From positions 76,846-140,845 of the forward strand of contig JAQWOM010000043.1 in NCBI GenBank assembly GCA_029245865.1: 64,000 nucleotides of DNA, read 5' to 3'. Under the pieces are notes generated by a model. The model had not been told where the DNA came from. It did not search any database and worked only from the letters and a program-made list of their open reading frames with translations. Position numbers and translations under genes: made by a program. Shown piece after piece: positions 7,139 to 33,495 of this stretch. Position 1 is the first letter of the stretch; every line of letters starts with the position of its first letter. The stretch comes from Planctomycetota bacterium. GTDB lineage: Bacteria; Planctomycetota; B15-G4.

Positions 7139-7142
7139 CTTC

Positions 7143-8771: not shown

Positions 8772-10685
8772 ATGCCTTCAACCACGGTGGATTCACACAC
8801 CCCCATGCCAGCGCACCAAGCACCGCGCGGCCTCTGGGCATGCGTGCGTGACGGGGGCCGACCGCTCGGGGCTTTTCTGATCCTCGCGCTGGGCATCAAG
8901 CTGCTGATCATCATGGCAGCGCTGGGCGACGACCCCCTCGCTCGCCACCCCACCAGCGACGCGCTCTACTACCTGGAACGCGCTGCCGGCATTGCAGGAC
9001 TGATCGACGACCCACTGGTCCATGAGCCCTTTCACCTTCCCCCGCTATACCCACAGATCCTGGCTCGGGTTCCCGGCGCCCTGCAGGGAAACTTTGCCGG
9101 CGTCTACGTCATCCAGGCCCTCTTCGGCACAGCAGCACTGCTAGGCGTCTTCTTGCTCGCCCGTCGAAGGGCCAGTCGAAAACTGGCTCTCGGTGCAACC
9201 GGGCTCACCTTGCTCTATGGACCACTGACCTTTTTTGAGTTGAAGCTTCTCGGAGACTCACTGGCTTGCTCGCTGCTGGTGTTCGCACTCGTCGTCACCG
9301 ACCAACTCGCCGATCACTTCAACCCGCAACGCGCAAGCAGCCGTTCCCCACGCCCGAACGGAAGCAGCTCCAGCACCGCAGAGGTTCTCTGGGGATTTCT
9401 CCTGGGGCTACTGCTCGGTCTGACCTCGTTACTGCGTCCACAGATCCTCTTATTTTCTGCTGCGCTCGTCCTGTGGCTGCTGATCCGGCGAGCCCGCACT
9501 GCAGCACTGTGCAGCGCCCTCGCTCTCTCACTCACCCTCTTGCCTTCCTTGCTCCACAACGCCTCGACGGGCGCCCAGTTCACTCCCGTGTCGGACAACG
9601 GTGGCGTCAACCTCTGGCTGGCAAATACAGGACCGCCCTCCGGCACCTTCCTCACCTACGAGGAGTCCTTCGGCGACATTGCGCAACAGGCCCGGTCAGC
9701 ACGAAGCGTCGCAGAGGGCATGGCAGGTCGAGAACTCTCCCCTGGTGACGTCTCAACCACCCTCAGTCGCGCTGCCTGGGATGCCATGATCGCCGACCCC
9801 GTCCAGTTCTTGGCGCGGCTACGCCTGCGAGCGCAGGCTTCCCTCGAATCCTTTGAAACGGGCATCGTCGCCGTCCCCGAGGTGGAAGCCCAACTCATTG
9901 GACCTCTGCGAATTCTTGCGGTTCCTTTCGGAATCTTAATCGCATTCGGTGGCGCAGCGCTCGTGATCCTCTCAAGGCGAAGCGGCGCTCGCTCGCGCTC
10001 TCCGGAAGAAAACGCTGCGGCGACACCCGTCTTTCCCATGCTTGCGCTGGCCGGGCTCGTCATACTGACAGCGCTGATCTTCTTTCACTACAGCCGCTTT
10101 CGACTTCCACTCATCCCTCTCCTGGCCATCAGCATCGCCTGGGCGTTTTCCTCCATCCAGGCACACAGACCGACTGCTCTTCGTGCAGGACTTGCACTGC
10201 TGACAGCAGCCTGCCTCGCCTGGATCGCCTGGCTACCGGGAGAGCATCATGCCCGCACCCGCACCATCGGCTGGACGAGCTTGGCAGAAGCTCGCCTCGC
10301 TCTGGCCCCACCCGCTCGGCGCCAATCAGCACTCAAGGCGGCTGACGAAGACATGACCCGAGCACTGGAACATGAACCCACTCTGATCCGAGCGCGGCTA
10401 CAAGCGCATCACATTGCGTTGGGCCTCGGTCGCTTCGATGACGCCCTGAACCATCTGGATGTGGTCTCTGAAGTCCTTCCCGACCACCCCAAGGTCCTCA
10501 TGAACCGCGCCTGGCTCCATGCCTGGCAATCACCGAACAACCGGCACTACGATCTAGAAGCTGCGCGCACCCTGGTCGAAAGATTGCGCATGGAATCGAT
10601 TCTTGATTCCGATCTCGCGCCGCATGTTTACCGCCTGGATGCAACCGTCACGGCACTGGAACAACAAGAGTCTTCTGGTCGCTGA
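8772..10685 (+). CDS. GT-C fold membrane glycosyltransferase-like protein (GT39/GT83-like) with C-terminal TPR-like repeats
   Basis: More than 10 predicted TM helices in the N-terminal ~470 aa with a conserved acidic first loop. C-terminal ~150 aa are soluble and helical-repeat-like. Family assignment by architecture only. Confidence 0.4.
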   Translation: MPSTTVDSHTPMPAHQAPRGLWACVRDGGRPLGAFLILALGIKLLIIMAALGDDPLARHPTSDALYYLERAAGIAGLIDDPLVHEPFHLPPLYPQILARVPGALQGNFAGVYVIQALFGTAALLGVFLLARRRASRKLALGATGLTLLYGPLTFFELKLLGDSLACSLLVFALVVTDQLADHFNPQRASSRSPRPNGSSSSTAEVLWGFLLGLLLGLTSLLRPQILLFSAALVLWLLIRRARTAALCSALALSLTLLPSLLHNASTGAQFTPVSDNGGVNLWLANTGPPSGTFLTYEESFGDIAQQARSARSVAEGMAGRELSPGDVSTTLSRAAWDAMIADPVQFLARLRLRAQASLESFETGIVAVPEVEAQLIGPLRILAVPFGILIAFGGAALVILSRRSGARSRSPEENAAATPVFPMLALAGLVILTALIFFHYSRFRLPLIPLLAISIAWAFSSIQAHRPTALRAGLALLTAACLAWIAWLPGEHHARTRTIGWTSLAEARLALAPPARRQSALKAADEDMTRALEHEPTLIRARLQAHHIALGLGRFDDALNHLDVVSEVLPDHPKVLMNRAWLHAWQSPNNRHYDLEAARTLVERLRMESILDSDLAPHVYRLDATVTALEQQESSGR

Positions 10686-17084: not shown

Positions 17085-20000
17085 TCAGAACGAAACGTTC
17101 CTTGTGACCAGTTCGACCTCATCGATCACAACGTCACCAAAGGTCACGGCCCCCGCCCCATGATCCGGGTCCACGAAATCGCCGTCTACGAGCAGTTGAA
17201 AGCGAAGGTATGTCTTTCCATCTGCAATAGATCGAGCAACCTCGGGCAAGCCCACGATGCTGTTAGGCAACTCGAGATCCGCCCCCACAAGGCTCACTGT
17301 CCCAGGGTCGACGGCCACTCGGATAGTCACATCGGGATCTGTCGCACGCAGGACATGGAGAGTCGTCCCATCAAACGCAACCGCTGAGGCGACAGAAGGG
17401 ACACCTCCGTCCACGATCCGCGCATAGCCGTGCACACCATCCAGCGAGATCCCCTTCGATCCGTCAGCGACACTGAACTGAATCAACATCGAAGAACCCG
17501 CTCCATAACGAGCCATCGGATCAACAGCCCAGGCTGTCTGAGTGGCTGCGTCATACGCCAGTCCCGTGAATTCAAAGTCGAGCGCTTCGGCGTCGCGTTG
17601 AACCCGGAACATGTCATCTACATGGAGCACCGTGAAGTCGGCGGTGAACGGGTCACCCGCCAGTGGATCAATCGTTGGGATCGAGACAACAAGGTCAGAC
17701 CGATTCGCTGCGATCAAGAGTCGATCGTCTTCTGTCATCGCGCCAGGCACAAAAGCCATGCCACCTTCCAACACGGACGGCAAGCGAATCGTGCGCTGGA
17801 ACAGCCCGGTCCCACGGTTAAACACGTGGACGAGGCCTGCGCCACGCTCAAGCAAATAGAGTTCGCTGGTGGCACCGCCCACGGCCATGGAAACAATGTC
17901 CAGTTGACTCCCTCCCACAGAGGGGATGTCTGGCAACGCGAGATCGGTACTGCCGGCCAGGTCATGAATGACAGACGTGCTCTCGCCGATGCTGTAGAGC
18001 AGGGCATTCTCAGTCGCATCAAACACGAAACCTGCGCGGCCGGACACGAGATCAGACGCCTCGTAGAAAGTCGGAGAAGCACCCGCGACATCCAACACGC
18101 CGTTGATATCCACCTTCGTCGGGTTGAAAACAAAGCGGAATGGAGGACGAAGGAACTCACCGGAACCGCCGGACTGCCCACTCTCCAGATAAGACCAGCT
18201 CAACCCGGTTTCTGCGACACCATCCTCATCAGTGTCGGCAGAGTAGTTCACGACAAGAGACTCGAACTCGGGGTTTGAGAGACCTGAGTTGTAGAACCGG
18301 CTTTCCGCCACGGAACGAGGCAAGCCAACAAGCCGCCCCACGTTCTCCGCGCTCAGCACGGGATCCGTCAGTCCGAAGAAACTGGATGGCAGCAAGCTAT
18401 CCGAGAAATTCTCGAACCGGATCCAACCGTCTCCACCAGTTCCCCCCAGACCAAGACCTTCAACGCTACCGCCCTCTCCGCCCTGTGCCTCAAGGAGCGC
18501 GCCGCCAAAGAGCTTGAACCCGCTGCCGCCGCGCAGAATGAGGCTGCCACCGGAACCACCCCCGCCACCGGCATAGAGAGCCACCGGAGCATCGATTTCT
18601 CCCCCATCGCCACCTCGCACCGACAGGGTTGCTGAACCACGCACTGTGATGAACTTCGCGCATTCGAGTTCGATACTGCCGCCTCCAGAACCACCGCCAG
18701 CTCCAGGGGTGAGCAGTGGCAGTGTGGATGCGGACGTTGCAGCGTTCAGCGTCCCAGTCACGGAGACACCGCTGCCACCACCTCCCGACCCACCGAGCGC
18801 ACTCGGGGGAACAAGCAGGAAGCTCACTTCAGAGCCCAAGCTCAGCCCAGGTCCTCCGAAACCACCCGGGCCCGAGGTCAGTCCCACGTCGACTTCGAAT
18901 GATTCGATCCGTTCCACGGTAAAGGTGGGATCGGTGAAATCCGTGATCTCGAATAACCAGCCATCGTTGGGAGCGTTTGGTACCAGAGAGGATCCAATCA
19001 AGGCCGTGGGATCCAGACTCGAGAGAGAAGCGCCCGAGGTCTGGGTCAGCCAGTCAAATTCTGTATCGCTCACCGCAACACCCGTACCGCGCACGGCGCC
19101 GAGCCCACCACCGCCTCCGGGTGACGCATCGAGTGCAACACCACCTAGGCCCTTTCCGCGCTGATCTTCCAGTGGGTCTGACAGAGGCCCACTCGAGCCG
19201 CCTGTGGAGCCACCAGAAATGCCGCCGCCACCGCCACCGCCACCGCCCGTCGTCATGATGGCCGGCGAGTCGTTGACGACCACATACGGCAAGGCGCCTA
19301 CGCCGCCACGTTGAAATCCACCCAAGTCTCCGCCGGGCACTCCCTGCAATCGACCGATCAAGTAAGAGTCACCGGCCGCAGCAATGGGCGCGTAGTTGGT
19401 GCCAATGTTGTCCGACACCTCAAGCATCGACTCTCCTTGAGAATCATCCACTTCGATGGAAGAGACACTCCCGACCACCGTCACTTCCTCAACGACGAAC
19501 ACGGGATTGTTCTCGTCAATAAGCTGATTCTTCGTACCGGCGTTCAACTGATCGGATGTCCCGAGCCCCATGTTGGGCTGCAGCAGGATTTCTCCGGCCA
19601 GCACCTGGGCATACAGATCCGGATCGCCTCCCAGCCCCAGCCCCGGGTCAGTCAGAATCGAAAGGTCAGTGTTCTCATCGGTGAGCAAGCTCGAGGTCAA
19701 GGAAACGCTGCGCCCTGTCGCACCGCGCATGCGTGGGTCCGCGGTTTCGAAAGCAGTGCCTGACATCGGCACGCTCGGCGAGACCAGATCCAACAACACA
19801 GTGTCTACCGAGCCATCTGCCGAGGTGTCCACCGCAAGAAGGACATCACCGCCATCGCCTCCAGCCCCCGCAGAGACAAGGCTTTGCCCGCCAAGACCGC
19901 CCTGTCCGAGATAGTCTGCATAGAGCGGGTCTGACGCATTCACTGGAACCGGCAAGATTTCACCCGGAACCCCGCGGGACAGCACCGAGCCGGCAATGTC

Positions 20001-21515
20001 TATATCCACCGTGGCCCGGATCACGATCGACGCAGGCACTCCGTCCAACGGGTGCCCTGGGCTTTGGACGATGAACTCATCGGGGTCGTTCATTCCGTCG
20101 TCGTCTCTGTCGCGCAAGACAGCGAGGGTCCAATCTGCCGGCAACTCAACGCGTCGAAATTCCCAGGCGCGCGGCTCGAACACGCCGGGACTCACCTCTT
20201 CGACAGTCGGAAGCAAAACAGCCTTCTCATCGAAGTCCACAACAGCCTCAAGCGGGACGTCCGTCGTTCCCAGAGCGACTGCCGTGCCCTCCGGATCCAA
20301 GATCAAGTTGCCGTCAAGACCGAGGCCTCCTGCCAAACCAGTTGTGAGCGCACCTTGTGGTGAGGCCCACTCCGCAGAACTCCCTGTAAGGCTCTCTTGA
20401 GCTGTGTTGTCAAAGGGCTCCGTGACAAGGTACGCCAGCGGATCAATGCCACTCACCGTGCTCACAGGCGCAGAGATCAACGGCGAGAAGTCCCCCGACA
20501 AGGAGAGCTTGGAATTGCCGGCCAGGTCTTCAACGCTCGCTTTGACTTCCACCAACAGAAAGGCGTCTGGTGGAAGCGCCACCAGGTCGGATCGCCACCG
20601 AGCGATGGTCAAATCGCCCTGCTGATGCAGGAAGCTCAATGTTGCAGGCGCGATAATGGGCACGAAATCACCATCCCCTGCGGTGTTGAGCAAGATCTGG
20701 ATGGAAGGACTCGAACCGTCCACAGAACTGAACACGGTCTGCGGAATCACAGCATCGTTGAAAATAAAGACGAGGTCGCGAAGCGGGGAGTACGGAACTG
20801 TGAGGACAGAGCCTTCGACCACCTCGGTGGGATTGCTGAAGAACAGCAAACTCTCTTCTGTCAGGTCGGCATCACTGTCCGCATCCACGATATCGCCGAA
20901 CGAAATCCCTGTGGTGTCGTCCACGAAGAATGCACGTACCGTTGGGTATCCCGGCTTTGTATCGAGTGCCTCTGTAGGCGTCCGGAAGAAGTACGACGTG
21001 TCCGCATTCGACATCGACTTCCCGCCCTCGGAAAGAATGCCATTACCCCCCGACGGATCACCAAAAGTGATCTCGTAGAGCGCATCTTCAACAAAACCAA
21101 AGGTGACATTCTGCGAGTTGAACTCAAGCAACGGCCGGATGAAGACGCGCTTACCTTGCACATCAAAGACCGCGGCCGCCTGCAGTCCAGCCGGGGCGCT
21201 CGACAGCCCCGCCGCGTCAGCGACAGTCACGAGCCTGAGGCTGCTGCTCATAACGCTCGCCGGATCCACACTCTTGTTGAAGATCAACTCAACCGATTGA
21301 TCCAGGCCTGCGAGCTTTGAGCCGTAGGGGCCCGCGATCACGCCAAAACCCTTCAGGCCGGAGGAGCTTGAACCGCCACCACCACCGCCACCGCCTCCGC
21401 CTCCTCCGCAAGCCGTCAGGAGGGCGATCACGAAGACCGGAAGAAGACGCAGAAAACGTGTCAGAGGTGCCATGGGTGAGGGCCTTGCCGAGTCTGGACG
21501 GGGGCGCGACATCAT
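17085..21515 (-). CDS. giant surface lipoprotein paralog C (lipobox LTAC followed by a G12 tract; glycine-rich beta-helix-like repeats; beta-propeller-like C-terminal region)
   Basis: Signal peptide MAPLTRFLRLLPVFVIALLTAC, then GGGGGGGGGGGGSSSSG. Internal G-rich blocks (TTGGGGGGGGGISGGSTGG; AGGGSGGGSIELE...GGDGGEIDAPVALYAGGGGGSGGSLILRGGSG). Start ambiguous between ATG at 21515 and 21473. Confidence 0.7.
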   Translation of the reverse strand: MMSRPRPDSARPSPMAPLTRFLRLLPVFVIALLTACGGGGGGGGGGGGSSSSGLKGFGVIAGPYGSKLAGLDQSVELIFNKSVDPASVMSSSLRLVTVADAAGLSSAPAGLQAAAVFDVQGKRVFIRPLLEFNSQNVTFGFVEDALYEITFGDPSGGNGILSEGGKSMSNADTSYFFRTPTEALDTKPGYPTVRAFFVDDTTGISFGDIVDADSDADLTEESLLFFSNPTEVVEGSVLTVPYSPLRDLVFIFNDAVIPQTVFSSVDGSSPSIQILLNTAGDGDFVPIIAPATLSFLHQQGDLTIARWRSDLVALPPDAFLLVEVKASVEDLAGNSKLSLSGDFSPLISAPVSTVSGIDPLAYLVTEPFDNTAQESLTGSSAEWASPQGALTTGLAGGLGLDGNLILDPEGTAVALGTTDVPLEAVVDFDEKAVLLPTVEEVSPGVFEPRAWEFRRVELPADWTLAVLRDRDDDGMNDPDEFIVQSPGHPLDGVPASIVIRATVDIDIAGSVLSRGVPGEILPVPVNASDPLYADYLGQGGLGGQSLVSAGAGGDGGDVLLAVDTSADGSVDTVLLDLVSPSVPMSGTAFETADPRMRGATGRSVSLTSSLLTDENTDLSILTDPGLGLGGDPDLYAQVLAGEILLQPNMGLGTSDQLNAGTKNQLIDENNPVFVVEEVTVVGSVSSIEVDDSQGESMLEVSDNIGTNYAPIAAAGDSYLIGRLQGVPGGDLGGFQRGGVGALPYVVVNDSPAIMTTGGGGGGGGGISGGSTGGSSGPLSDPLEDQRGKGLGGVALDASPGGGGGLGAVRGTGVAVSDTEFDWLTQTSGASLSSLDPTALIGSSLVPNAPNDGWLFEITDFTDPTFTVERIESFEVDVGLTSGPGGFGGPGLSLGSEVSFLLVPPSALGGSGGGGSGVSVTGTLNAATSASTLPLLTPGAGGGSGGGSIELECAKFITVRGSATLSVRGGDGGEIDAPVALYAGGGGGSGGSLILRGGSGFKLFGGALLEAQGGEGGSVEGLGLGGTGGDGWIRFENFSDSLLPSSFFGLTDPVLSAENVGRLVGLPRSVAESRFYNSGLSNPEFESLVVNYSADTDEDGVAETGLSWSYLESGQSGGSGEFLRPPFRFVFNPTKVDINGVLDVAGASPTFYEASDLVSGRAGFVFDATENALLYSIGESTSVIHDLAGSTDLALPDIPSVGGSQLDIVSMAVGGATSELYLLERGAGLVHVFNRGTGLFQRTIRLPSVLEGGMAFVPGAMTEDDRLLIAANRSDLVVSIPTIDPLAGDPFTADFTVLHVDDMFRVQRDAEALDFEFTGLAYDAATQTAWAVDPMARYGAGSSMLIQFSVADGSKGISLDGVHGYARIVDGGVPSVASAVAFDGTTLHVLRATDPDVTIRVAVDPGTVSLVGADLELPNSIVGLPEVARSIADGKTYLRFQLLVDGDFVDPDHGAGAVTFGDVVIDEVELVTRNVSF
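21372..21407 (-). repeat. (CCN)12 / Gly12 coding tract immediately after the lipobox Cys of giant paralog C
   Basis: Plus strand reads ccgccaccaccaccgccaccgcctccgcctcctcc; encodes 12 consecutive Gly. Confidence 0.85.
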
Positions 21516-21801: not shown

Positions 21802-22587
21802 GTGCCCCCCTCTCCGCCCCCTCTGATCGACACCCACTGCCACCTGGCCTTTTCTGCCTTCGATGAGGACCGCTCGGAAGTGCTGAATCGGGCCCGGGAG
21901 GCCGGACTGGTGAGTTGCGTCGCTGTCGCCGTGGACGCCCAATCGGCCCGCCAGGCCCTTGCCCTGGCCAAGGCCGAGCCGGGGTTTGTGTATGCCACGG
22001 CGGGCATTCACCCCACCGAAGAGGCCGTGGCAGACCCGGCGGAGTTCCCCCTCGTGCGCGAGTTGCTGGAGTCGAAGCAGTTTGTCGCCGTTGGAGAAAC
22101 CGGGCTCGATGCGTATCACGAATGTGCCCCTCTCGACATCCAGCGCGATGCGCTGATTCAACATCTCAACCTGGCCCTTCAGTGCGACCTCCCGGTCGTG
22201 CTGCATTGCCGTGATGCATTTCCGGAACTTCTCGCAGCTCTTGAGAGCTACCGGGGAGAAGGACTGCGCGGCGTCCTTCACTGCTTCACTGGAGGACACT
22301 CAGAGCGCGAGGCGCTGCTCAGCCTCGGCCTGCACATCGGCGTCGGCGGTATTGCAACCTACAAACCGAACTCGGACTTGCGCGAGGTTGTTCGCGAAAT
22401 CCCCGACGAGCGACTGCTGATCGAAACAGATGCCCCTTGGCTTTCACCTGTACCAATGCGTGGCCGGCGCAACGAGCCAGCCTTCGTCGCTCATGTGGCA
22501 TCCAGGCTCTCCGAAGAACGCCAGCAGCCTCTCGCGACACTCGCGAAACAGTGCACCGCAAACGCCCAGGCACTGTTTCGCTTCTAA
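21802..22587 (+). CDS. tatD: TatD family metal-dependent hydrolase/DNase
   Basis: IDTHCHL..., GETGLD, HCR, HCFTG and ETDAPW blocks in TatD order. Confidence 0.8.
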   Translation: MPPSPPPLIDTHCHLAFSAFDEDRSEVLNRAREAGLVSCVAVAVDAQSARQALALAKAEPGFVYATAGIHPTEEAVADPAEFPLVRELLESKQFVAVGETGLDAYHECAPLDIQRDALIQHLNLALQCDLPVVLHCRDAFPELLAALESYRGEGLRGVLHCFTGGHSEREALLSLGLHIGVGGIATYKPNSDLREVVREIPDERLLIETDAPWLSPVPMRGRRNEPAFVAHVASRLSEERQQPLATLAKQCTANAQALFRF

Positions 22588-22618: not shown

Positions 22619-23506
22619 TCAAACAGCGAGCCATGTCATGGCTCTCCAGGCGGCCCCCGGCCAGGCGAGTTCCGTCAAAATCCCAACCGAGAGGAAGGGA
22701 CCAAAGGGCAAGCCAACCGGCCCGCCTCGCCCCGACATCCGGGCTGCGATCTTGAGAAAAATGCCTACCAGCGCTCCGACGAAGCACCCCACGAGGATTG
22801 CCTCAAGAACCAGAATGGGCCCGAGAATGGTTCCAGCAAAGGCCATCCATTTCACATCTCCAAGTCCCATGGCGTCTTGAACACCCGCGGCTTCGATCTG
22901 GCTTCTCAGCATGATGTTGCCCAGCCGCCCGACCAGCCACAGCGAGCCTCCGCCCGCAAGCATCCCCATCAGCGCCACGAGAAGGCTTGAGCCATGAACG
23001 AAGGGCTGTCCACCGATGGGTCCGACTTCGCCGGCAAGAAACAGGACGCCATCGACATGCAACTGGGGAATCAGCAAGGAGGCCAGGAGGCCCAGGGCGA
23101 TTCCGGGCAGCGTGATCACGTCCGGAATGATGAAGTGCTCGAGATCGATGGCACTCACGATGACGCAAAGTGACGCCATCACCCAACCAACCAGAAGAGG
23201 CGTCCAGGCAATCTGCTCTCCATGAATCTCCTGAGCCCAGAAGGCGACGAACAGCGCTCCGGTCAGCAGTTCCACCACAAGATAACGTGCAGAAATCTTG
23301 GTGGAACAATATCGACAGCGCCCCCGAAGGCAGAGCCACGAGAGCAGCGGAACATTGTCAAGCCAGGAGAGTTGCCTCTTGCACGTCGGGCACAAGGAAC
23401 GCGCCGGTTTCCAGAGACTCAAGCCCTCACGTGGCACACGATGAATAACAACGTTCGCAAAGCTCCCGACGGACAAGCCCAGGAACGAAACGAAACACCA
23501 CCCCAT
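22619..23506 (-). CDS. pilD: prepilin peptidase (A24 family, PilD/GspO-like), bifunctional leader peptidase/N-methyltransferase architecture
   Basis: N-terminal zinc-binding CPTC...CRYC tetracysteine, catalytic Asp in ...IDLEHFIIPD... and ...GLGDVKWMAF..., eight TM helices. Start at MGWCFVS. Confidence 0.8.
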   Translation of the reverse strand: MGWCFVSFLGLSVGSFANVVIHRVPREGLSLWKPARSLCPTCKRQLSWLDNVPLLSWLCLRGRCRYCSTKISARYLVVELLTGALFVAFWAQEIHGEQIAWTPLLVGWVMASLCVIVSAIDLEHFIIPDVITLPGIALGLLASLLIPQLHVDGVLFLAGEVGPIGGQPFVHGSSLLVALMGMLAGGGSLWLVGRLGNIMLRSQIEAAGVQDAMGLGDVKWMAFAGTILGPILVLEAILVGCFVGALVGIFLKIAARMSGRGGPVGLPFGPFLSVGILTELAWPGAAWRAMTWLAV

Positions 23507-23540
23507 CCAGCCCTCAGTCAGGCTCTGCATGCCGGAGATC

Positions 23541-24305
23541 CTATGATTTGGAAAGCGTCACGACGAGTGGTCCTTCGGGCGAACGACCATCGAGCCCCCG
23601 CAAACCGATTCTCTTCCAGATCAACTCGAGCGATCCGGATTCCGGGGGGACGCGGAGAAGGACCTCACTCCGAGAACCCTCCAACGACCAGCGGGTGTCT
23701 GGCAAAACGGGCTTGAGTTGAAGGCCTTCGGCGACAGGGAAGAGTGGGCAACTGGCAGGCGACACGGAGTTGGGCGCAACCACCCCCTCGAAAGAGAGTG
23801 CGATGACACCGTCATACGGAACAGGCCCCTGCTCATGGGGAGATCGCCCGTTGATGGACTTGAGTTCCAGCAGCCCGGCGTAGCTGAGCCTTGGCTCAAG
23901 AGTGACTTCCAGCCAGCGGGCTTCCGCCATGGAAGCACCTGAGTGAGACCGGAGAGCCTGAAGAGACGGCCAGCCAGCAAGCCTGATGAGAAGCTTTCCG
24001 GGAGGGTCTTGAACAAGCGCTTCATCGAGGAGGAGCGTCACCTCGAGTTGAGGACCGCTCAACTTCAACTGGTGGGCCAGGGGAGTTCCCTCATCGGTGA
24101 CCACTCGAACGGCGCCTTCGGTCACAAGTAACAGATCAAGATCTGCCGAAAAATCAATGACCACACTCTCATTCAGTGATCTCGATTCCGTCCAGCCGGT
24201 CACAAAGAGAGGCATCTCATCAACGGCACCACTCCCGCATTGAGGCGTCACGAGCGCCAGGGCACAGAACAAAATCAAACGGGGGAGCCGCCAGTCGAAA
24301 GACAT
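23541..24305 (-). CDS. hypothetical secreted protein, operon partner of giant lipoproteins and pilD
   Basis: Signal peptide MSFDWRLPRLILFCALALVTPQCGSGA; beta-rich body with no recognisable catalytic motif. Begins 26 nt after the giant B stop and ends 10 nt before pilD. Confidence 0.5.
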   Translation of the reverse strand: MSFDWRLPRLILFCALALVTPQCGSGAVDEMPLFVTGWTESRSLNESVVIDFSADLDLLLVTEGAVRVVTDEGTPLAHQLKLSGPQLEVTLLLDEALVQDPPGKLLIRLAGWPSLQALRSHSGASMAEARWLEVTLEPRLSYAGLLELKSINGRSPHEQGPVPYDGVIALSFEGVVAPNSVSPASCPLFPVAEGLQLKPVLPDTRWSLEGSRSEVLLRVPPESGSLELIWKRIGLRGLDGRSPEGPLVVTLSKS

Positions 24306-24331
24306 GCCGTCCAACAATCGAGGTCGAGTCG

Positions 24332-27300
24332 TCAGTAGCTTGCACGCATGCGAACGTATTCCGCTTGCGGCCGGAAGCTCTCGACCCCGAATGGGAATTC
24401 GGTCAAATTCACGCCGATGTCGAAACGAACTCGAAACCGCACGAGTGGATACCCCGACAGTTCGGTCAAGTCGGACAGCCACGCCGTAGTCGTCTCCTCA
24501 TCCGGGACACTTGATCCGGGACGCACAGCATAAGCACCCTGAAAGCGAACGGACACGGCGGCGTTATCAGAAACTGCGTCGAGTTGCAGAATGCTCTGAT
24601 CTGGTGCATTCACGCGGATATCGTTGTACGGGGCTGTGTTGCCAGGTGACGAAGGGAACAAGCTCGGCGACCCTGTGCTGATCGAGTTTTTCACGTAGTG
24701 GGCAGGCTTGCCCACGACAGCACCGCTCAGAATCATCCGTCCATCGCTTCCTGCTGGGGTCACCTCAGGTGCCGAAGCGTGATGAGTCCCCAGAAAAGCC
24801 TCAAAGAACGGTGGAGTCCGTCCATCCTCATTGCGTGCACGTAAACCCGCTCCCTGGAAGTCCAGCCAGACCGAGGTCCCCACGCTCACTGTCCCGAGGG
24901 GGGGCGGCGTCTTGCTCGGGTGAATCACGGGCAAGCGCGTGACCAGATTGTCCGGATCGAAGACATCTTTACCGTCCAACTCCACTGTCGGAAGCGTTCC
25001 ATCGGGCTCCACCATACGGACGCCAAAGGGAATCGTTTCACCGGCGTGAGTCGTCCCCGGCGTTTTTGGAAATTTGGGATCGGAGGCGGGGTTGTTGATT
25101 TCCTTGAACGTCACCGGGTTGTAGCCGTTGTAGGTCTTCATGACCTTCTCCGGCTCAGGCTCACGCACGAAGGCGACCCCAGGGAATTCCGGCATCTCCA
25201 TCATCGCCGTGTCAAACCAGGTCTGACCAGAGTCTGGGGGATATTCATTGGTCAGCGACGGGAACGACCCATTGGGTCCGCCCTCACTCGGGATGAGTGG
25301 TGGGTAGGCCCCATTCAAGACGTAATAACGATCGAAAAAATTGGTCCCGGGTTGCAGAACGAATGAGCGGTGATGAAGCATGTCGATGTAGCGCAGGTCG
25401 TCCGACAGTTCGTCATCAGGAAAATCGGGGTGATCACCCTGCTTCGCGTTGAGGTCGCCCGTCCAGGTTCCGAGTTTCAGAATGGAGCGCTGCTTTGCGA
25501 AGAGGAAAGCGCCCGGTTGAATCTCGGGGAACCCCGTGCCATCCCCCATCTGCAACTGGATCAGGCCGGCGCCACCCTGCCCTCCGTCACTCCGCGTGTG
25601 ATCAAAAGTAAAAGACTGGAAGTCGATGGTGTTGGCGGGATTTGTCCGAGAGTCACGCCCCATGCCTCCCGACACATCCAGAGAGGCCCCCTGCTTGCCA
25701 TCAACGTCGACATAGGACGCGCTCAGGTGACCTTCGTCTGCCTCGATGCGAATGTTCCCCGCTGCCTGAAGGACGATTGCACCGCCACTGCCGCCACCGC
25801 CACCTCCGCTGAAGGCACTCGTCTGAACCACTTCTCCTCCGCCACCGTGGCCGCCGCTGGCATCGATGTGACCGAGGCGCCCGATGACGATGTCACCAAA
25901 CGAGCGAATCTGGACGGAACCGCCCCCGCCACCACCTCCCCCACCCTTTGCATCCAGGCTAGAGGGAGCCAGAAAGACGCCCACCAGGAGCTTGGGGAAG
26001 AAGGGCGGGGCAAGCGCCGGTGGTACGGGAGCACCGAGGGCATTCAACGACCAACCTGCGTGGCGCATGCTGTCAACGCGCGAGCCACCACCCCCACCAC
26101 CTTGTCCACCAATCAGCACGGGCAGTTCACCACCCGCACCAATGAAATCGTTGGACGTGTCGCCATCGCGGAAAACCGGATCGCCGGCATCCGCACCAGG
26201 CTTGATGCGAGAAATACTGGTTGGATCGGTGTAATCCTCAGACGCCCCCGGCTTGAACGTCATATAGACGCACTGCAGCGGTGTCTTCGGCAACTGCCCC
26301 GAATAGAAGTTCTCGTCATTGCCGTAGACGGCGTCGCTCCGCTTGTTGTTCGTAGGGCATTTCGTAAAGGGGAACCAACTGCCGTTGCTCTGAATCAGAT
26401 AGGCCCCACTTCCTTCACGCGAGGGCTGCCCCACGTGATAGAAACTTCCGCCACCTCCACCAGGTGCCCGATGGTGTTCGGTGTTATCGCTTGGCGGAAT
26501 CTTGGGGATAAACGCGGCCGTAGGATCAAAGCCCACTGTGCTTAACCCCCCATGCCCTCCAATCTGCTGAACCGTCAGCTTTCCGCCAGGAGTGAGAACG
26601 GGGCCGAAGCCACGCTCACCTGTTTCCGGAGTGACGTACTGGTCGAGGGAGGCGGGTCCGTTGGGGTCGAACAACGTCGGCTGGCTGTCACCGCCTCGGC
26701 CACCACCGGGGCCACTTGGCCCTCCACGCACCGCGACAAAACCCGAATCGAAAGAATCGTCACTGAGACCGTCCGTCCCTTTGATCGTCAGGACCCCGTT
26801 GATTTCGACCTTGCGCGTCGCCGTGATCACCAACGGCTTGCTACCCCGAGCGATCACTTGCGCGCCCTCAGGGATGATGAAATCGCGAAATGCGAACTGA
26901 CCGCCATAGATGGTGATGTTCTCTGTGATGCCCGGAGTCGCACCGCTCGGCAATGGGAAAGACTGCGCATCTGTATCCAGGAAGACCGTGTTGAATGTGG
27001 TCAATTCCAGCGACAGATCCCTTTCACCCTTCGTGGAACTTGAACGCGTGTAAGCAAACAGCTCTTCGAAATCGGGCGATCCCCCAGGAAGGAAATCGCC
27101 GAGGTCTACTGTCTCGCTGACACCGACAGAGGCTCGCAAGCCGGGCACAATGGACGAGCCCACAAAGGAGCCCGACCACTCGGCAAGCGGGCTCGTGCCA
27201 ATCGGCGATTCATCCTCGTACTTCCGCTCCTCAAACTCTTCGAGGAATGTGTCGTCAATATAGGCTTCTGGCCCGGCCAGGGGGATCGCTGTGTGCAAAC

Positions 27301-29335
27301 TGAGCAGTCGCGTGGCTCCCAGGGGCGTCACCGTATCTTCGGGGTCTTCATTCACCGCGTTCGTACCGAAGAGTGACATCAGCGTGTTGCGCTGCATCAC
27401 ATCCAACTCGGCATCGATCGGAAGGACGCCCACGGGCCTCAGCTCCAAGACAGCGCCCTCTTCGGCGTTGGACTGAACCACCACATCGACATCGAAGTCC
27501 ATGAAGCCGACGGTCAACGCCCGAGCCGGGCTCAGGTTCTCTGGAAAGCTTGTAAGCGGGTGCCCGAAAGCCGCCACGTCTGAGACAACTGTGCCAAGAA
27601 CGCCCAGGTCGGGGTCGATGACCTGGATGGAATCGAGTGTTCGGTTGAGCGCCAAGATCCGATTCTCGCCGACAAACTGGAGATCGACGTATCGCCCGGA
27701 GAGTTCCAGCGCGACATCGGTTTCCAACCCACTGAAAAGGCCGTCGCCGTCCTCAAATTCCCCGTCAAGTTCGAAGTCAATCGGCGCCAGACGTAAGATC
27801 GAGGTTTGATCAGGATTGCCATTTCGAATGGCGAGGGCATACAGCTTCCCCGAGGGAGCCTGCGCGAGATCGAGGATCTCACCCGCAGATTCCGGTTGCG
27901 GAGCACTCAGAAACCCCGTCTCTCCATCACCCGTGGCCACGCTCACCAGAATCGGGGCCTGGAGGTCTTCCTCGACAGGGTTCGGCCGGCGTCGGATGAC
28001 GGTTGGCAACAGTTCATGAAGACGCCGAGTGCTCCTGTCGTACGCCACAAGTCGGCCGTCCAGAAGCGTCACAAGCCCCACCAGATCTTCGAGCCCTGTC
28101 GTGACAGGTCCTGGCTCACCGCCCTCGTCAGGCGCAACAGCCATCCGTGCGTGAAACGGATCTCCGAGGACAGGGTCCGCCACGGAGAGCAGGTCAGGCC
28201 CTCCATCCACTTTGAGAATCGACCACAGCAGCGACGCGTCCAGACCACACGCCATGCTTCCGATCGTGCCTGTCAGTTCGGGATCAGGGTCGGGCAGTGC
28301 GCCCGAAGTCTCGTTATGAAGAAAGATGTTTGCGCCTGAAGCGTCCGGATCCACGCCCTCGTCAAGCGCCGAGAGAGCCTCGAAGGCCGGATGCACGCCG
28401 AACGTGTCTGCTGGCACGGCGTGCGACACAAGCAGTCCAGTTCCCCGAGCCCGCAAGAAGAACGTCGGATCAAGGAGACCGTCAGCATTGAGATCTAAAC
28501 CCGCCAGGTTGTCACTTGTCGGCACCAAAGCACGGTCGTAGGTCAGTGCGATCTGCTCGGCGCCAAGGGGAAACAGCGATGTCCCCTCGAACTCGAGCGA
28601 GGTCGTCGAAAAGGTCTGCGGGAAGAAGTCCGTCGTGCCATCCGGGGGGACGGCGCCTGCGAGGGCCGGTTTCAATCCATCAGCACCGCTCGTGGGATAA
28701 TAGGCTGCCGAGTTCGAGGTGGTGCCAAACTTCACCGTGCCAGGCACACCTTTCAGATCAGGGTGCAGATTCTGGATACGCGTACTCGGCAAGGTGGAGA
28801 CGGCCACCGTGTAAACCGACGCTGGCAACAAGCCCGGCACGGATTCTGCGGGCGCAGAAAGAACCGGTGAAAGCGGGGCCGTCGGCACGAACGGCCGAAA
28901 CTCCACCGTATTGCCAACGCGCACATAAGTACCCTTGGCAGTGATGACCGGGGTGGTGCCATTGGCCCCCGACTCCGGCCCCACCTCAGCGAGCGTGGTG
29001 TAAACGGGCAGGGAGGCGCTGTTAAACGGCCCCGAAGGTGGACCGCTGAACCGAAACACCAGCGTCAGATTGAGTGGGCCACCAGCCGTTGCTGGCGTCG
29101 AACTCAGATCTTCCATGGGCGGCTGCGTGAACTCCGGATCTGAACCTATCCGGAACGAAAACCCCAGAAAATTGACCAGGTTCGACGTGCCGCCGCCGCC
29201 ACCGCCGCCACCGCCACCACCGCCGCCGCCACACGCCGCGAGTGACAGACAGACAACTCCTAGAGCGAGGCCTCCGAAGACCCGGGCGGTCGATCGCGTC
29301 ACCACACCGGCTCGGCCGTCAATCCAGCTTTTCAT
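24332..29335 (-). CDS. giant surface lipoprotein paralog B (lipobox LAAC followed by a G14 tract; beta-propeller-like and glycine-rich beta-helix-like modules)
   Basis: Signal peptide MKSWIDGRAGVVTRSTARVFGGLALGVVCLSLAAC, then GGGGGGGGGGGGGGTSN. Internal poly-G (AKGGGGGGGGGSVQIRSFGD...SGGGGGGSGGAIVLQAAGNIRIE). Start overlaps the giant A stop by ~16 nt, suggesting translational coupling. Confidence 0.7.
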   Translation of the reverse strand: MKSWIDGRAGVVTRSTARVFGGLALGVVCLSLAACGGGGGGGGGGGGGGTSNLVNFLGFSFRIGSDPEFTQPPMEDLSSTPATAGGPLNLTLVFRFSGPPSGPFNSASLPVYTTLAEVGPESGANGTTPVITAKGTYVRVGNTVEFRPFVPTAPLSPVLSAPAESVPGLLPASVYTVAVSTLPSTRIQNLHPDLKGVPGTVKFGTTSNSAAYYPTSGADGLKPALAGAVPPDGTTDFFPQTFSTTSLEFEGTSLFPLGAEQIALTYDRALVPTSDNLAGLDLNADGLLDPTFFLRARGTGLLVSHAVPADTFGVHPAFEALSALDEGVDPDASGANIFLHNETSGALPDPDPELTGTIGSMACGLDASLLWSILKVDGGPDLLSVADPVLGDPFHARMAVAPDEGGEPGPVTTGLEDLVGLVTLLDGRLVAYDRSTRRLHELLPTVIRRRPNPVEEDLQAPILVSVATGDGETGFLSAPQPESAGEILDLAQAPSGKLYALAIRNGNPDQTSILRLAPIDFELDGEFEDGDGLFSGLETDVALELSGRYVDLQFVGENRILALNRTLDSIQVIDPDLGVLGTVVSDVAAFGHPLTSFPENLSPARALTVGFMDFDVDVVVQSNAEEGAVLELRPVGVLPIDAELDVMQRNTLMSLFGTNAVNEDPEDTVTPLGATRLLSLHTAIPLAGPEAYIDDTFLEEFEERKYEDESPIGTSPLAEWSGSFVGSSIVPGLRASVGVSETVDLGDFLPGGSPDFEELFAYTRSSSTKGERDLSLELTTFNTVFLDTDAQSFPLPSGATPGITENITIYGGQFAFRDFIIPEGAQVIARGSKPLVITATRKVEINGVLTIKGTDGLSDDSFDSGFVAVRGGPSGPGGGRGGDSQPTLFDPNGPASLDQYVTPETGERGFGPVLTPGGKLTVQQIGGHGGLSTVGFDPTAAFIPKIPPSDNTEHHRAPGGGGGSFYHVGQPSREGSGAYLIQSNGSWFPFTKCPTNNKRSDAVYGNDENFYSGQLPKTPLQCVYMTFKPGASEDYTDPTSISRIKPGADAGDPVFRDGDTSNDFIGAGGELPVLIGGQGGGGGGSRVDSMRHAGWSLNALGAPVPPALAPPFFPKLLVGVFLAPSSLDAKGGGGGGGGGSVQIRSFGDIVIGRLGHIDASGGHGGGGEVVQTSAFSGGGGGGSGGAIVLQAAGNIRIEADEGHLSASYVDVDGKQGASLDVSGGMGRDSRTNPANTIDFQSFTFDHTRSDGGQGGAGLIQLQMGDGTGFPEIQPGAFLFAKQRSILKLGTWTGDLNAKQGDHPDFPDDELSDDLRYIDMLHHRSFVLQPGTNFFDRYYVLNGAYPPLIPSEGGPNGSFPSLTNEYPPDSGQTWFDTAMMEMPEFPGVAFVREPEPEKVMKTYNGYNPVTFKEINNPASDPKFPKTPGTTHAGETIPFGVRMVEPDGTLPTVELDGKDVFDPDNLVTRLPVIHPSKTPPPLGTVSVGTSVWLDFQGAGLRARNEDGRTPPFFEAFLGTHHASAPEVTPAGSDGRMILSGAVVGKPAHYVKNSISTGSPSLFPSSPGNTAPYNDIRVNAPDQSILQLDAVSDNAAVSVRFQGAYAVRPGSSVPDEETTTAWLSDLTELSGYPLVRFRVRFDIGVNLTEFPFGVESFRPQAEYVRMRASY
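29189..29230 (-). repeat. (CCN)14 / Gly14 coding tract after the lipobox Cys of giant paralog B
   Basis: Plus strand gccgccgccaccgccgccaccgccaccaccgccgccgcc; encodes 14 consecutive Gly. Confidence 0.85.
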
Positions 29336-32300
29336 AAGGGATGACGATCGAGTTGATGATCGGCGGTTGCGTGGAGTTGGGCGCGACACCGAAGCTCGCC
29401 CGGAACTTGATGTAGGTGTACTCATCATCCGGGCCACTGAGATCGACGGTGAAGTTGGGCTCATCGGAACGGACGTAACCCGACTCCAGCGTGGGCGCCG
29501 CGAAGTTCAACTGGCGGCCAGCACGGAAATCAACGGCCAGCGACGCAGCAGGATCGACGTCGGCAACTGGCGGATGAATGATGGGCCGCTGGTAGCGAGC
29601 CGTGGTTCCATCCACTTCGATCGTGGGTGATTCGATCACCGAAACGCGCTTCTTGTACTTCCACATCATGTAGTAGCGGCTGTTGTCACCAAAACGCGAG
29701 GGAGGAGCCGTCATGCCTGGCTCGTTCGAGATGACGGTGGGCGCGGTGTTCGAGAACCCCTCATTGAAAGGAATATCACACGGGTCAGCACCCGGCCCGA
29801 TGGCCCCTGGTGGAGGTCCGTACCCGAAGAAGAAGGTCGGCGGCTGCCCGGTCGGCCCCGGAAACGACGTGGGGTCCGGAAGCGGATTCATGAGCATGCC
29901 GTTGGCGTAGTAGTAGTTCGTCTCTGGCAAGACGTTGCCCCCGGGCAAGGTCGTGATGCAGCAGAGGTCGTCGTCATAGACGCCGTTCAGCGGACCGAAC
30001 GACTCGGGGCCTGTGTAGCTCGGTGTGGGTTGAATGGCGATCGTGTCGCCTCCGGCACAGTCCGGAGATTCGGGAATCTTCGGTGGCGTGATGTAGTCAA
30101 TGGGCAATTGGGTCGGCATGCCGTTGTGAAGACCCTGAGGTGCCACGGCCGAGGTGTAGGAACCAGGCTTGAGCAGAGGGCCACCCTCGCCCGCATGCAA
30201 GTAGTTGAGCTGCTTGGGGCAGGTCGCAATCCCAATCGACCAGTTGGGTGCGTTGTAGGCTGCCGGGTGCTGACCCTGACTCCAGATACGGAAGCGAGGC
30301 AACACGGAGGTCAGGATGCCGGGCGAGAACCGATACACATTGCCAGGAGGAGGCGATTCGTTGGGACCGATGGAATACTCGATGAGCATCGGGAAGCGGC
30401 TGTCGTACGGGAAAGAGAAGACATCCTCTTTGCCGAAAAACGGGTCGAGTCCCGCATTGAAGTCCGGATAGTCCAGATAGAGGTTGAACGCACCAGGCGT
30501 TGACCCTGCGTTCGTCGGCTTGAACAGGTTGGTCGGACTCAGCGTGTAGGCCGTTCCGCGCTGAACAACGGTTGTCGTCTCTGGCTGGGGGTTCTTCTCC
30601 AGTTGTGCCTCCAGGTTGTTGGTCAGGCCTTGTCCCTCTCCAATGCAGCAGTTGTCGAAATGCTCAAGACGGTTGCAGTCAAAGTTCCTGTCCAGGCCTG
30701 AATCATCGTCGGCAGGAATTCCGTTGGTCTGATTCGTGTTGGGCCCGCGGCCTCTGTTCGCACCACCGAGACCGACGAGGAGTTCGAAATCGTCCAGCAC
30801 CGTGGGAAACACGACGTCATCGAACGGGGACCAGGCCAGACCCACCAGATCGAGAGTCACGCCGGCGAAAGACGTCTGGGACGGCGAGGCATCACCTGCA
30901 CGGTAGACATGCTGGAAGCGCGCACCGAAACCCGAGTTGATCGGCGTTCCTGCGCCAAAGCCCAGCGACACCAGCAAATCTTCCCCGTTCGGCGACGCCC
31001 AGGCCGAAGGTTTGGGGGGATTGTTGTTGTCGATCAGGTGCTGAATGACAGCTGCCGGCGCACCGGTGAGCCAACCGGGAATGTTCAGGCCGACCTCCGT
31101 CACCTGCGGGCCGTAGATGAAACGCCGCTCTGGAATGCCGTTGTCGTCTGAATCGATCGGAGGGTAATCGTTGTATTCGACCCCAGACGTCACGCTGTCA
31201 TGCACGCTGCCCTCTGGGTAAGTGATGTTTGCTGTCAGCGGCTGCCCAAGGAAGCGGTGCACAATCACGCCGTAGTCGGGATCGCTGCTCGGCAAGGTGT
31301 CAAAGGTCATCGAGTTGTCGATCGCCGGCGGGAAGGCCCCTCGCGAGGGGCTCGTCGGCACGAGAAAGAAGTTCTCGGTGTCCCCCTGGTCGAGAAGGGC
31401 TGCGGGAAGGCCGAGCCCTCGACCACCCACATTGATGCAGCCCGTGATGCCCAAGGTGTTCAGGTCATCCAGTTGAGCCAGCACTTCGGGAGTTGCCGTG
31501 GCCGCGATCTCGTCAATCGTGGACTGAGGAGGAAGCGTACGCACCACGAGACGGAGTTGGCTGGCGGTACCACCAAAGCCAACGAAACGCGAGTTGGATG
31601 TTTCAACCTGATCTTCAAGGTAAGGCTGGAACTCCATCACGGACCCATTGTCCAGGGCCACCGTCCGCCCCAGTCGCATGTCCCTGAATGCGCTATCGGT
31701 CGGAGACAAAGAACCGTCCGCGACATAAAAAGACTCGTAAGGATCGAAGCTCGCGACGTCCATGCCCTCGCTGAACTGGAGACGCAACGACGTGCGAGGC
31801 GGAACAGCAAGGAAAGTCGACGTCGCTGCATTCCAGTGATTCAGACGCTCCTCTCCGAACTCATCGAACATGCGTACGAAATACCGCAGATCGCTGTTGA
31901 ACTGATCCTGAGGATCGTTCGGATCACGCGGGACGCTCTCTGGGTCGACCGTGATCGCCGCAAGGCTGACCGGATCGCTGGGAAAAGGAGGCGGAATGGG
32001 CTCGAAGAATTCGCTTCGTGACACGGTGTAGGCATCACCCACATTCGTGTCCACAGCAAGAGACTGCCCCGGCGCCAGCCTGAAGACGGCGTCGCCCCCG
32101 GAATTGAAGTTCGACTCCAGGACGTACTGGGTGGTGCCCTCGAAGGATTCCACTTCCATCAATCCGTTGGCCCATTCGCCCTCACCGTCATTCGCGCTGG
32201 TGTTCGGAAGCTGAGCCAGCGAGTCATCGCGGAGCTCAAACTGTCCACCCACAAAGTCGAGAGAAGACAGTGAACTCGACAGGACCACACGACGAATGAT

Positions 32301-33152
32301 GCGAGGAGCTGTGAGATCGGGCAGGAATCCGTTGAACGACACCGCGCCGTCATCTGTCTGCAACACGATCGCGTCGAGTGCGCTGTTCCCCGTGTTGACC
32401 GGAAGTGGGCGCACCAGACTCCCAAGCTTGTCATCTCGTGTCTGAATGGGCAGGCCCGAGACGGACTCCAACGCGCCACCTCCGACACTTCCGCTCACGA
32501 CGGCTCTCAGGAATCCCGTGGAATCCTCCACGGCCGTTCCCGTCTGGTCAAAAACCAGCGGGCTGGCTTCAAACCCAAGACTCTCGCTCGTGATGCCGAC
32601 GATCACCACCTGGTTTCCCACCACGAACGCGCGAGACGGAATGACGGCCCCAGACTTACGTTGCAATTGAACCGTGCTCAGAGGACCGAGCCGATTCGTT
32701 TCCCCCTCGGCCGTCGGCGACAGCAAAGCGAGACTCGCCTCCGACACCGGCATGGAGAACTCAAGAATCAAAGCGGCATTGCGAGGCAGCAATGGAATCT
32801 GCGGCGTGAGCGGATCCAAGATCTGAGCCAAGCTGAGCGACGCGAGAGAGGAAAGCGAGGCTCCTTCGGTGAGCACCTTGGGAAAGCCCGGCAAGACAAC
32901 ACCGGTGAGCGGGTCGATCTCGTAGAGCGAGGCTGGGTTCACCAAGTTCAAGAGTTCGCCCTGCAGATCCAAGATGGGCCGCGCAAAGGCTGCGCCCGTC
33001 AGGAAGAAGTCGACATCCGGATCCAGAGGTGTCGAGCCTCCAGTGCTTCCACCACCACCACCACCACCCCCGCCACCACCACCACCACCACATGCCGCCA
33101 GCAGCCCAAACATGGCCGCGACAAGGGCTCGACTGAGCAGGGACTGTGACAT
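29319..33152 (-). CDS. giant surface lipoprotein paralog A (lipobox LAAC followed by a G15 tract)
   Basis: ATG at 33152 with GGAG 8 nt upstream. Signal peptide MSQSLLSRALVAAMFGLLAAC, then GGGGGGGGGGGGGGGSTGGS. About 1277 aa, rich in G/D/P/S/T. Shares the C-terminal motif RPIIHP with paralog B (RLPVIHP). Confidence 0.7.
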   Translation of the reverse strand: MSQSLLSRALVAAMFGLLAACGGGGGGGGGGGGGGSTGGSTPLDPDVDFFLTGAAFARPILDLQGELLNLVNPASLYEIDPLTGVVLPGFPKVLTEGASLSSLASLSLAQILDPLTPQIPLLPRNAALILEFSMPVSEASLALLSPTAEGETNRLGPLSTVQLQRKSGAVIPSRAFVVGNQVVIVGITSESLGFEASPLVFDQTGTAVEDSTGFLRAVVSGSVGGGALESVSGLPIQTRDDKLGSLVRPLPVNTGNSALDAIVLQTDDGAVSFNGFLPDLTAPRIIRRVVLSSSLSSLDFVGGQFELRDDSLAQLPNTSANDGEGEWANGLMEVESFEGTTQYVLESNFNSGGDAVFRLAPGQSLAVDTNVGDAYTVSRSEFFEPIPPPFPSDPVSLAAITVDPESVPRDPNDPQDQFNSDLRYFVRMFDEFGEERLNHWNAATSTFLAVPPRTSLRLQFSEGMDVASFDPYESFYVADGSLSPTDSAFRDMRLGRTVALDNGSVMEFQPYLEDQVETSNSRFVGFGGTASQLRLVVRTLPPQSTIDEIAATATPEVLAQLDDLNTLGITGCINVGGRGLGLPAALLDQGDTENFFLVPTSPSRGAFPPAIDNSMTFDTLPSSDPDYGVIVHRFLGQPLTANITYPEGSVHDSVTSGVEYNDYPPIDSDDNGIPERRFIYGPQVTEVGLNIPGWLTGAPAAVIQHLIDNNNPPKPSAWASPNGEDLLVSLGFGAGTPINSGFGARFQHVYRAGDASPSQTSFAGVTLDLVGLAWSPFDDVVFPTVLDDFELLVGLGGANRGRGPNTNQTNGIPADDDSGLDRNFDCNRLEHFDNCCIGEGQGLTNNLEAQLEKNPQPETTTVVQRGTAYTLSPTNLFKPTNAGSTPGAFNLYLDYPDFNAGLDPFFGKEDVFSFPYDSRFPMLIEYSIGPNESPPPGNVYRFSPGILTSVLPRFRIWSQGQHPAAYNAPNWSIGIATCPKQLNYLHAGEGGPLLKPGSYTSAVAPQGLHNGMPTQLPIDYITPPKIPESPDCAGGDTIAIQPTPSYTGPESFGPLNGVYDDDLCCITTLPGGNVLPETNYYYANGMLMNPLPDPTSFPGPTGQPPTFFFGYGPPPGAIGPGADPCDIPFNEGFSNTAPTVISNEPGMTAPPSRFGDNSRYYMMWKYKKRVSVIESPTIEVDGTTARYQRPIIHPPVADVDPAASLAVDFRAGRQLNFAAPTLESGYVRSDEPNFTVDLSGPDDEYTYIKFRASFGVAPNSTQPPIINSIVIPYEKLD
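33045..33089 (-). repeat. (CCN)15 / Gly15 coding tract after the lipobox Cys of giant paralog A
   Basis: Plus strand ccaccaccaccaccacccccgccaccaccaccaccaccac; encodes 15 consecutive Gly. Confidence 0.85.
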
Positions 33153-33495
33153 CACATCACTCCGGTGATTCATGCGATTCATGGCGATAGGTGCGATTCG
33201 TCTGGAACAGCGGCCCCTCGCAAAGGAAGACCTCCATCTAAAGAAGAGGATACCCGTGCGTTTCCGACTGACCATACGCGTGCCTTGAAGGATCGAGGGA
33301 ATCAGCCGTCCGGAGGATTCAGAAGGGGGAAGGCGGCCTGGAACCCGCCCAGGATACCCTTTCAAGCTGCTCTCTGCCTTGACGAAGAGCGCCCACAAGG
33401 CCTGACAGAGCCGCACAGGGCGTCGGCCGAATCACAGGGTTCTCGGGCTCCACCAGGGCTCCACCAGGGCAACGCCACCGGCCACCGACATCCAC

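Follow-up and report, generated by a model that had tools for sequence, protein, structure and literature searches.

What is a prepilin peptidase gene doing at the end of a row of genes for very large lipoproteins? The question is raised by a 64,000-nucleotide stretch of DNA from a Planctomycetota bacterium (GCA_029245865.1, contig JAQWOM010000043.1, positions 76,846 to 140,845 of the forward strand), which is referred to below as the window. An earlier note on this DNA had read four of its genes as an operon for two paralogous giant lipoproteins with poly-glycine tethers (A and B), a small secreted protein (S) and a dedicated peptidase of the A24 family (PilD), and had proposed an uncharacterised surface-display or processing system. 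The reading favoured here, with moderate confidence, is a different one: the giants are clade-specific, adhesin-like or S-layer-like envelope lipoproteins carried on glycine tethers, encoded beside a housekeeping PilD and probably co-transcribed with it. The locus and its immediate surroundings, all coordinates being those of the window, are as follows.

33153..33495, (-) strand: 343 nt of intergenic DNA before giant A, presumed to hold the promoter and leader of the A-B-S-PilD unit
29319..33152, (-) strand: giant lipoprotein A, 1277 aa; class II signal peptide and LAAC lipobox, then a beta-rich body of several domains
33048..33089, (-) strand: run of 14 Gly codons, mostly GGT, immediately behind the lipobox Cys, encoding the tether of A
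24332..29335, (-) strand: giant lipoprotein B, 1667 aa, with a signal peptide and an LAAC lipobox; its start overlaps the end of A
29189..29230, (-) strand: run of 14 Gly codons, GGC and GGT mixed, immediately behind the lipobox Cys, encoding the tether of B
23541..24305, (-) strand: small partner S, 254 aa, of a clade-restricted family of about 240 aa
22619..23530, (-) strand: PilD, A24A prepilin peptidase, 303 aa, last gene of the unit and convergent with tatD
21802..22587, (+) strand: TatD-family hydrolase (TIGR00010, 1.2e-73), which bounds the unit on its 3' side and itself belongs to the conserved block
17085..21473, (-) strand: giant lipoprotein C, with 12 Gly (21372-21407) after its LTAC lipobox, transcribed separately

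The four co-directional open reading frames (ORFs) A, B, S and PilD have the coordinates and strand given by the earlier note, and the gaps of 26 nt between B and S and of 10 nt between S and PilD are also as it described. The overlap of A and B exists as well, but amounts to 17 nt from the coordinates instead of about 16. The same four models (1278, 1667, 254 and 303 aa) were produced by independent gene callers in other metagenome assemblies of the same organism. The four-gene picture had nevertheless overlooked a third giant, C, of about 1462 aa when counted from M49 and of 1487 aa according to the gene callers, which is placed beyond the convergent tatD in the same conserved block. Upstream of A, a GGAG Shine-Dalgarno sequence stands 7 nt before the ATG. 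Pattern scans for sigma-70-like, sigma-54-like and terminator elements gave matches at or below chance; since no sigma-70-like or sigma-54-like match exceeds chance, this region is best described as a putative promoter. It also contains an exact 11-bp direct repeat, GGGCTCCACCA (2.4 copies at 33445-33470; coding strand tggtggagccc), which could be a candidate regulator-binding site.

All three giants fit a lipoprotein pattern, in which a basic n-region and a hydrophobic h-region are followed by [LVI][ASTVI][GAS]C within about 15-40 residues of the start: arginine or lysine and a hydrophobic stretch precede LAAC in A, LAAC in B and LTAC in C. Giant A begins MSQSLLSRALVAAMFGLLAAC and continues with 14 Gly; B reads ...LALGVVCLSLAAC, also written ...GLALGVVCLSLAAC, likewise before 14 Gly; C reads ...VFVIALLTAC before 12 Gly. 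The claim that LAAC is followed by poly-Gly in A and B is thus confirmed, with 14 residues in each and not 14-15. No other Cys-polyGly site occurs in the window. The signature is conserved, since 64 of 71 A-family proteins and 48 of the 57 B-family proteins listed keep the Cys-Gly run. Seven of the nine B-family exceptions are N-terminally truncated gene calls and the other two are remote hits (P0056 and P0057), while several A-family exceptions read CGSGSS or CSGSS and at least one is a truncated gene call. The lipobox Cys is conserved in more than 110 homologs, and C orthologs carry a Gly run too. Among database homologs the run is 2-11 residues long, so that the 14 Gly of the window are extreme.

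Trinucleotide repeats that vary from 2 to 14 codons between homologs are consistent with slippage, and the giants could in principle be frameshifted pseudogenes or their Gly runs assembly or slippage artefacts of GGN repeats. The probability of this explanation is negligible. The ORFs are uninterrupted, and full-length homologs (55 for B and more than 50 for A, hence more than 100) align at 40-74% identity over about 96-100% of the query. The gene models are identical in independent assemblies of the same organism, the AlphaFold2 (AF2) models of A and B are confident, and in the homologs the Gly run is always in frame and always immediately after the lipobox Cys. The pseudogene alternative, which the earlier note had itself raised together with that of a poly-Gly run away from the lipobox, is excluded.

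What kind of proteins are the giants? Scans of A, B, C and S against Pfam and NCBIfam returned no family match, the homologs of A and B are without Pfam domain and those bearing a name are called 'hypothetical protein, Planctomycetota bacterium'. Family profiles of A, B and S, compared with the sequences in the PDB, found no real match, and no PDB structure resembles A or B over the whole chain. For want of both a family model and such a structural relative, A and B constitute new protein families, and the description of the giants as uncharacterised lipoproteins stands, their Cys-polyGly tether being conserved in homologs. The profile AgmC_N was tried on the Gly-rich module of B and rejected: its 22.8 bits against a cut-off of 275 reflect a shared repeat type or composition and not membership.

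The description of A and B as paralogs did not hold. Their BLASTP comparison gave E>0.5, the other pairs among A, B and C being likewise insignificant, and hhalign aligned A and B over just a 30-column immunoglobulin (Ig)-like motif; the predicted folds of the two proteins differ. Profile-profile comparison related A to C through a 59-column N-terminal Ig-like domain (E 7.8e-9), and B to C through about 100 columns of the Gly-rich module (E 1.5e-10, 35% identity). C thereby shares its N-terminal Ig-like domain with A and its Gly-rich beta-helix module with B. A, B and C are mosaic proteins with a common architecture of N-terminal signal, lipobox, tether and Ig-like domain, and not usual paralogs.

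The proposal of a beta-propeller followed by a Gly-rich beta-helix holds for B, and for C by profile. In the model of B, an Ig-like N-terminal region precedes the beta-propeller, after which come a right-handed, Gly-rich beta-helix and, at the C-terminus, a beta domain; the helix and the propeller match HxuA, EtpA, FHA, ice-binding solenoids and the YVTN propeller of an archaeal S-layer protein. It does not hold for A, whose model has an N-terminal Ig-like domain and matches small beta domains only (SbsC S-layer Ig-like, MG-like).

The small partner S was described as a secreted protein. Its gene is at the expected place, but the alignment shows a conserved lipobox Cys column ([AG]C in most members) and no Gly run, and S therefore belongs to a lipoprotein family devoid of the tether; the copy in the window has the atypical site VTPQ|C. 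The family is narrow, with 48 representatives of about 220-250 aa among 1.84 billion proteins. S has no match in Pfam, NCBIfam or the PDB, and its sequence suggests two Ig-like repeats.

The peptidase at the end of the unit is of the canonical PilD type, as the earlier note had it. It matches PF06750 (2e-32, 111.4 bits for a cut-off of 23) and PF01478 (3.5e-12, 47.1 bits for a cut-off of 26.5), and both the zinc-binding residues C47, C50, C72 and C75 (pattern CxxC...CxxC) and the catalytic residues D129 (DxxxxIPD) and D225 (GxGDxK, here G-D225-V-K) are invariant in ten sequences from this clade and other phyla. It is 100% identical to a public protein from a metagenome-assembled genome annotated as prepilin peptidase; a profile search against PDB sequences yielded no solved relative. 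Its orthologs form a series of about 80 clusters at 48-100% identity, followed by a gap and then by the PilD proteins of other phyla at 40-47%. These features indicate that PilD is the canonical, bifunctional-type ortholog of the clade and not a divergent paralog. One A24 protein was found per long contig among the 120 hits listed, and PilD would be the sole A24 peptidase of its genome. Compared with PilD, XcpA and GspO (MEROPS A24A), with which it shares both Pfam domains, the four zinc-binding Cys and the two catalytic Asp, its sole oddity is the neighbourhood, where giant lipoproteins take the place of pilBC or gsp genes. The PilDs of this clade also contain an extra segment, LRSQIEAAGVQD, at residues ~205-220 just before GxGDVK; it is absent from the out-clade proteins P0235, P0238 and P0247 and present in P0212.

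Could this enzyme cleave or mature the giants, for instance within or beside the Gly run? A24 enzymes do cut after Gly, and the adjacency of the genes is conserved. Their substrates, however, need a short, basic leader whose last residue is Gly and, behind it, a hydrophobic stretch that has Glu at position +5. A six-frame scan of the window for such class III signals, with [FMLIV][ST]L[IVLM]E after the Gly of the leader and then a hydrophobic helix, found none, and the N-termini of A, B, C and S, read directly, are without a G|FTLxE motif: the giants have classical lipoboxes and all four signals are of class II, the type cleaved by Lsp. The A24 active site works at the cytoplasmic face of the membrane, whereas a Gly run exposed by Lsp would be on the trans side. 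With no substrate motif and with the wrong topology, direct processing is very unlikely, all the more for an enzyme that is a canonical ortholog and for a tether that is widespread without an A24 gene.

The pilins served by this peptidase would be encoded elsewhere. Three class III N-termini, GFTLVE(L/V), were found about 180 kb from the PilD cluster in a sister genome of 5.29 Mb. The absence of pilins, secretins and assembly ATPases from the window was borne out by the motif scan and by Pfam, in which type IV pilus and type II secretion system (T2SS) families (secretin, GspE/F, PilB/C, pilin) had no match; the same genes are missing from the 10-kb flanks of eight related clusters. The notion of a dedicated or orphan A24 processing system is not supported, given class II signals on the giants and S, a canonical PilD and, in the sister genome, distant pilins. 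The window also contains a ComEC-like competence gene (PF03772) at 5822-7138 (+), followed by a gene for a ComM/YifB-like ATPase of the Mg-chelatase family at 7143-8621 (+). ComEC and ComM are encoded by DNA-uptake genes, and pseudopilus partners of such genes would need PilD.

A search for co-occurrence of the Cys-Gly signature with A24 genes, which the earlier note had suggested, gave a negative answer. The tether also occurs on B paralogs and remote A homologs whose genes lie in unrelated neighbourhoods with no PilD nearby. Four B homologs whose context was checked first (P0004, P0009, P0008 and P0024) showed no synteny and are all extra paralogs; the true orthologs of the locus were located by searching with PilD. 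The three B copies of the 5.29 Mb genome all keep the Cys-polyGly start, and one alone is in the PilD cluster. The B family is expanded on this sister contig (L001 10001-14959, L002 10001-14977 and L006 ~4345-9210). In a metagenome scan for Cys followed by ten Gly, about ten lipoprotein-like N-termini occurred among the 123 matches listed, on unrelated ordinary proteins, the remaining matches listed being mostly low-complexity G-rich DNA. Four of these proteins were identified by Pfam (an SBP_bac_3 solute-binding protein, an S41 peptidase, an fn3+PD40 propeller and an Ig/PKD protein). None of nine such lipoproteins was homologous to A, B, C or S by BLASTP, and no A24 gene was found in the available flanks of 120 scanned loci. 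The Cys-Gly signature is thus found outside this locus as well, and has no tie to A24. Within about 300 kb of DNA from the clade, the tether is found only on the giant families and is absent from five smaller lipoproteins (170-455 aa).

Is the gene order itself informative? The tight packing described earlier is real, and each of the eight related genomes or contigs examined keeps the order A-B-S-PilD. A PilD search of species-representative genomes found six loci at 54-67% identity, where tblastn recovered, on every contig of sufficient length, A-B-S-PilD-(TatD, opposite strand)-C; two further genomes show the same A-B-S-PilD order, and contigs of equal length in the hit lists of A, B and PilD suggest it for at least ten more. 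Throughout the related Planctomycetota genomes examined, the locus belongs to a syntenic block, CoaX-A-B-S-PilD-(EF-G)-TatD-C-amidohydrolase-DHH-metallophosphatase-ProDH, and the syntenic region of about 30 kb also holds a GTPase and PGM. The adjacency of A, B, S and PilD is therefore real. Nevertheless, it is weak evidence for a shared function, because the whole ~30 kb is syntenic, housekeeping genes included. The block differs in two related genomes, in which a paralog of EF-G, missing from the window, stands directly after PilD and before tatD. This insertion, like the tethered B paralogs and remote A homologs away from PilD, further weakens the adjacency as functional evidence.

L003 12214-14217, same strand as PilD: EF-G paralog insert
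L018 10927-12942, same strand as PilD: EF-G paralog insert

Several observations weigh against the favoured reading of a housekeeping PilD beside the giants. A-B-S-PilD stays contiguous and tight in every genome checked, though the EF-G insertion rearranges the DNA just downstream, and this is the pattern expected of a functional operon. The S family and the PilD ortholog group also have similar, narrow phyletic ranges. A second A24 paralog may exist, the A24 count covering the contigs of the listed hits. PilD is probably co-transcribed with A-B-S, as judged from gene arrangement, and its co-expression with them is plausible.

These observations lead to the main rival, which is possible but unlikely: an indirect link, in which A, B, C and S cross the outer membrane by means of a T2SS-like pseudopilus or are envelope parts of a pilus system. 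PilD would then be co-expressed because the pseudopilins that it matures drive display, and poly-Gly would be part of a sorting or translocation requirement. The conserved order and tight spacing in all related genomes checked agree with it, as do the pseudopilin-like genes of the sister genome and the confinement of the tether to giant families in clade DNA. Such display of large lipoproteins is established: PulA of Klebsiella (with PulO/GspO) and InvL of Acinetobacter (with GspN) are displayed via a pseudopilus that needs an A24 peptidase (PMC7857515; PMC12802150). In loci of this type, as here, the lipoprotein gene and the A24 gene are together. In contrast with the PulA system, the present locus has no secretin, ATPase, platform or pseudopilin genes, the giants have no sequence or fold relation to pullulanase, and T2SS dependence is purely hypothetical here. 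The lack of assembly genes in the 64-kb window and in the flanks of the eight clusters, the location of same-tether B paralogs and remote A homologs far from PilD, and a synteny that extends to unrelated housekeeping genes all argue against the indirect link.

A further proposal is more doubtful still. Cys-polyGly would be a lineage-specific signal routing the non-homologous giants A, B and C to the surface via a T2SS-like machine, the A-B-S-PilD operon would couple this cargo with pseudopilin maturation, and S would be a pilotin or chaperone. If true, it would give the Planctomycetota a way of displaying megadalton surface layers that has not been described before.

How would envelope lipoproteins of the favoured kind be made and held? 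A, B, C and, in most genomes, S would be exported by Sec, receive a lipid from Lgt at the lipobox Cys and then be cut by signal peptidase II (Lsp). Once mature, the giants would be held at the membrane by the N-terminal acyl-Cys and a flexible, structure-free Gly tether of 5-14 residues plus further Gly and Ser. Their bodies are predicted to be assembled from beta-rich modules, Ig-like in A, B and C, with a propeller and a right-handed Gly-rich beta-helix in B and C, and the tether would let these megadalton-scale bodies extend beyond the leaflet that anchors them. The most likely role is an envelope layer of structural or adhesive function, because Ig-like, propeller and beta-helix modules are the building blocks of adhesins and S-layer-type proteins. 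The A24 gene would encode the ordinary PilD of the organism, cleaving and N-methylating class III signals of pilins or pseudopilins encoded elsewhere and not acting on the giants; its position at the end of the A-B-S unit would be conserved synteny inside a larger syntenic housekeeping region.

Several known systems resemble parts of this arrangement. Neisseria surface lipoproteins of the TbpB/fHbp type are a comparison for lipoproteins with disordered linkers. The linker lipoproteins of Gram-negative bacteria, such as those of the E. coli outer membrane, share with the giants a class II signal and a flexible tether of low complexity before the folded body, as well as an acylated Cys, which is predicted for the giants. 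Disordered N-terminal linkers are a common and functionally important feature of outer-membrane lipoproteins, about half of those of E. coli having one that is relevant to sorting (10.1101/2021.01.05.425367). The giants differ from them by a tether that is a pure Gly homopolymer of 12-14 residues and by a cargo of 1250-1630 aa, and in this locus three largely unrelated families share one type of N-terminus. FHA, HxuA, EtpA, HMW1 and beta-solenoid ice-binding or adhesin proteins are similar in fold to the internal beta-helix of B, at 9-13% identity. Contrary to substrates of two-partner secretion (TPS), B would be anchored by an N-terminal lipid and not secreted, and it has no Pfam match to TPS or haemagglutinin families. 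Neither a TPS domain (Pfam, NCBIfam) nor a ShlB/POTRA TpsB partner was found in the window.

Other features of the window lie apart from the locus. A 120-aa ORF at 49485-49847 (+), MAKKKATRKKATR..., encodes an extremely basic pentapeptide-repeat protein, (KKATR)x19, from a tandem repeat of 19 units of 15 bp at 49560-49844. It has no Pfam match, and we take it to be reminiscent of the histone-H1-like or chlamydial Hc2-type nucleoid proteins of the Planctomycetes-Verrucomicrobia-Chlamydiae (PVC) group. The conserved trio PrkA, DUF444 (YeaH) and SpoVR (YcgB), a stress-associated three-gene module, occupies 53096-57608 (-). Four RNA genes are also present on the (-) strand: a small signal recognition particle RNA at 47672-47770, two tRNA-Ser (CGA and GGA) at 47877-47964 and 48058-48149, and a tRNA-Arg (ACG) at 48959-49035.

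For the scanning of genomes, the lesson of this locus is negative: lipoprotein genes with an A24 peptidase gene beside them are not by that fact a processing system. In its pure poly-Gly tether, nature offers a clean case of the disordered-linker principle in lipoprotein sorting, one that is suited to tests of length dependence. Overall, the locus adds four conserved, family-less envelope lipoproteins, three of them above 1200 aa, to the poorly understood envelope of the Planctomycetota. With the confident structure models of A and B and the tether shared by the three giants, A, B and C, together with S, are concrete candidates for surface-layer or adhesion proteins in an uncultured marine and soil lineage.

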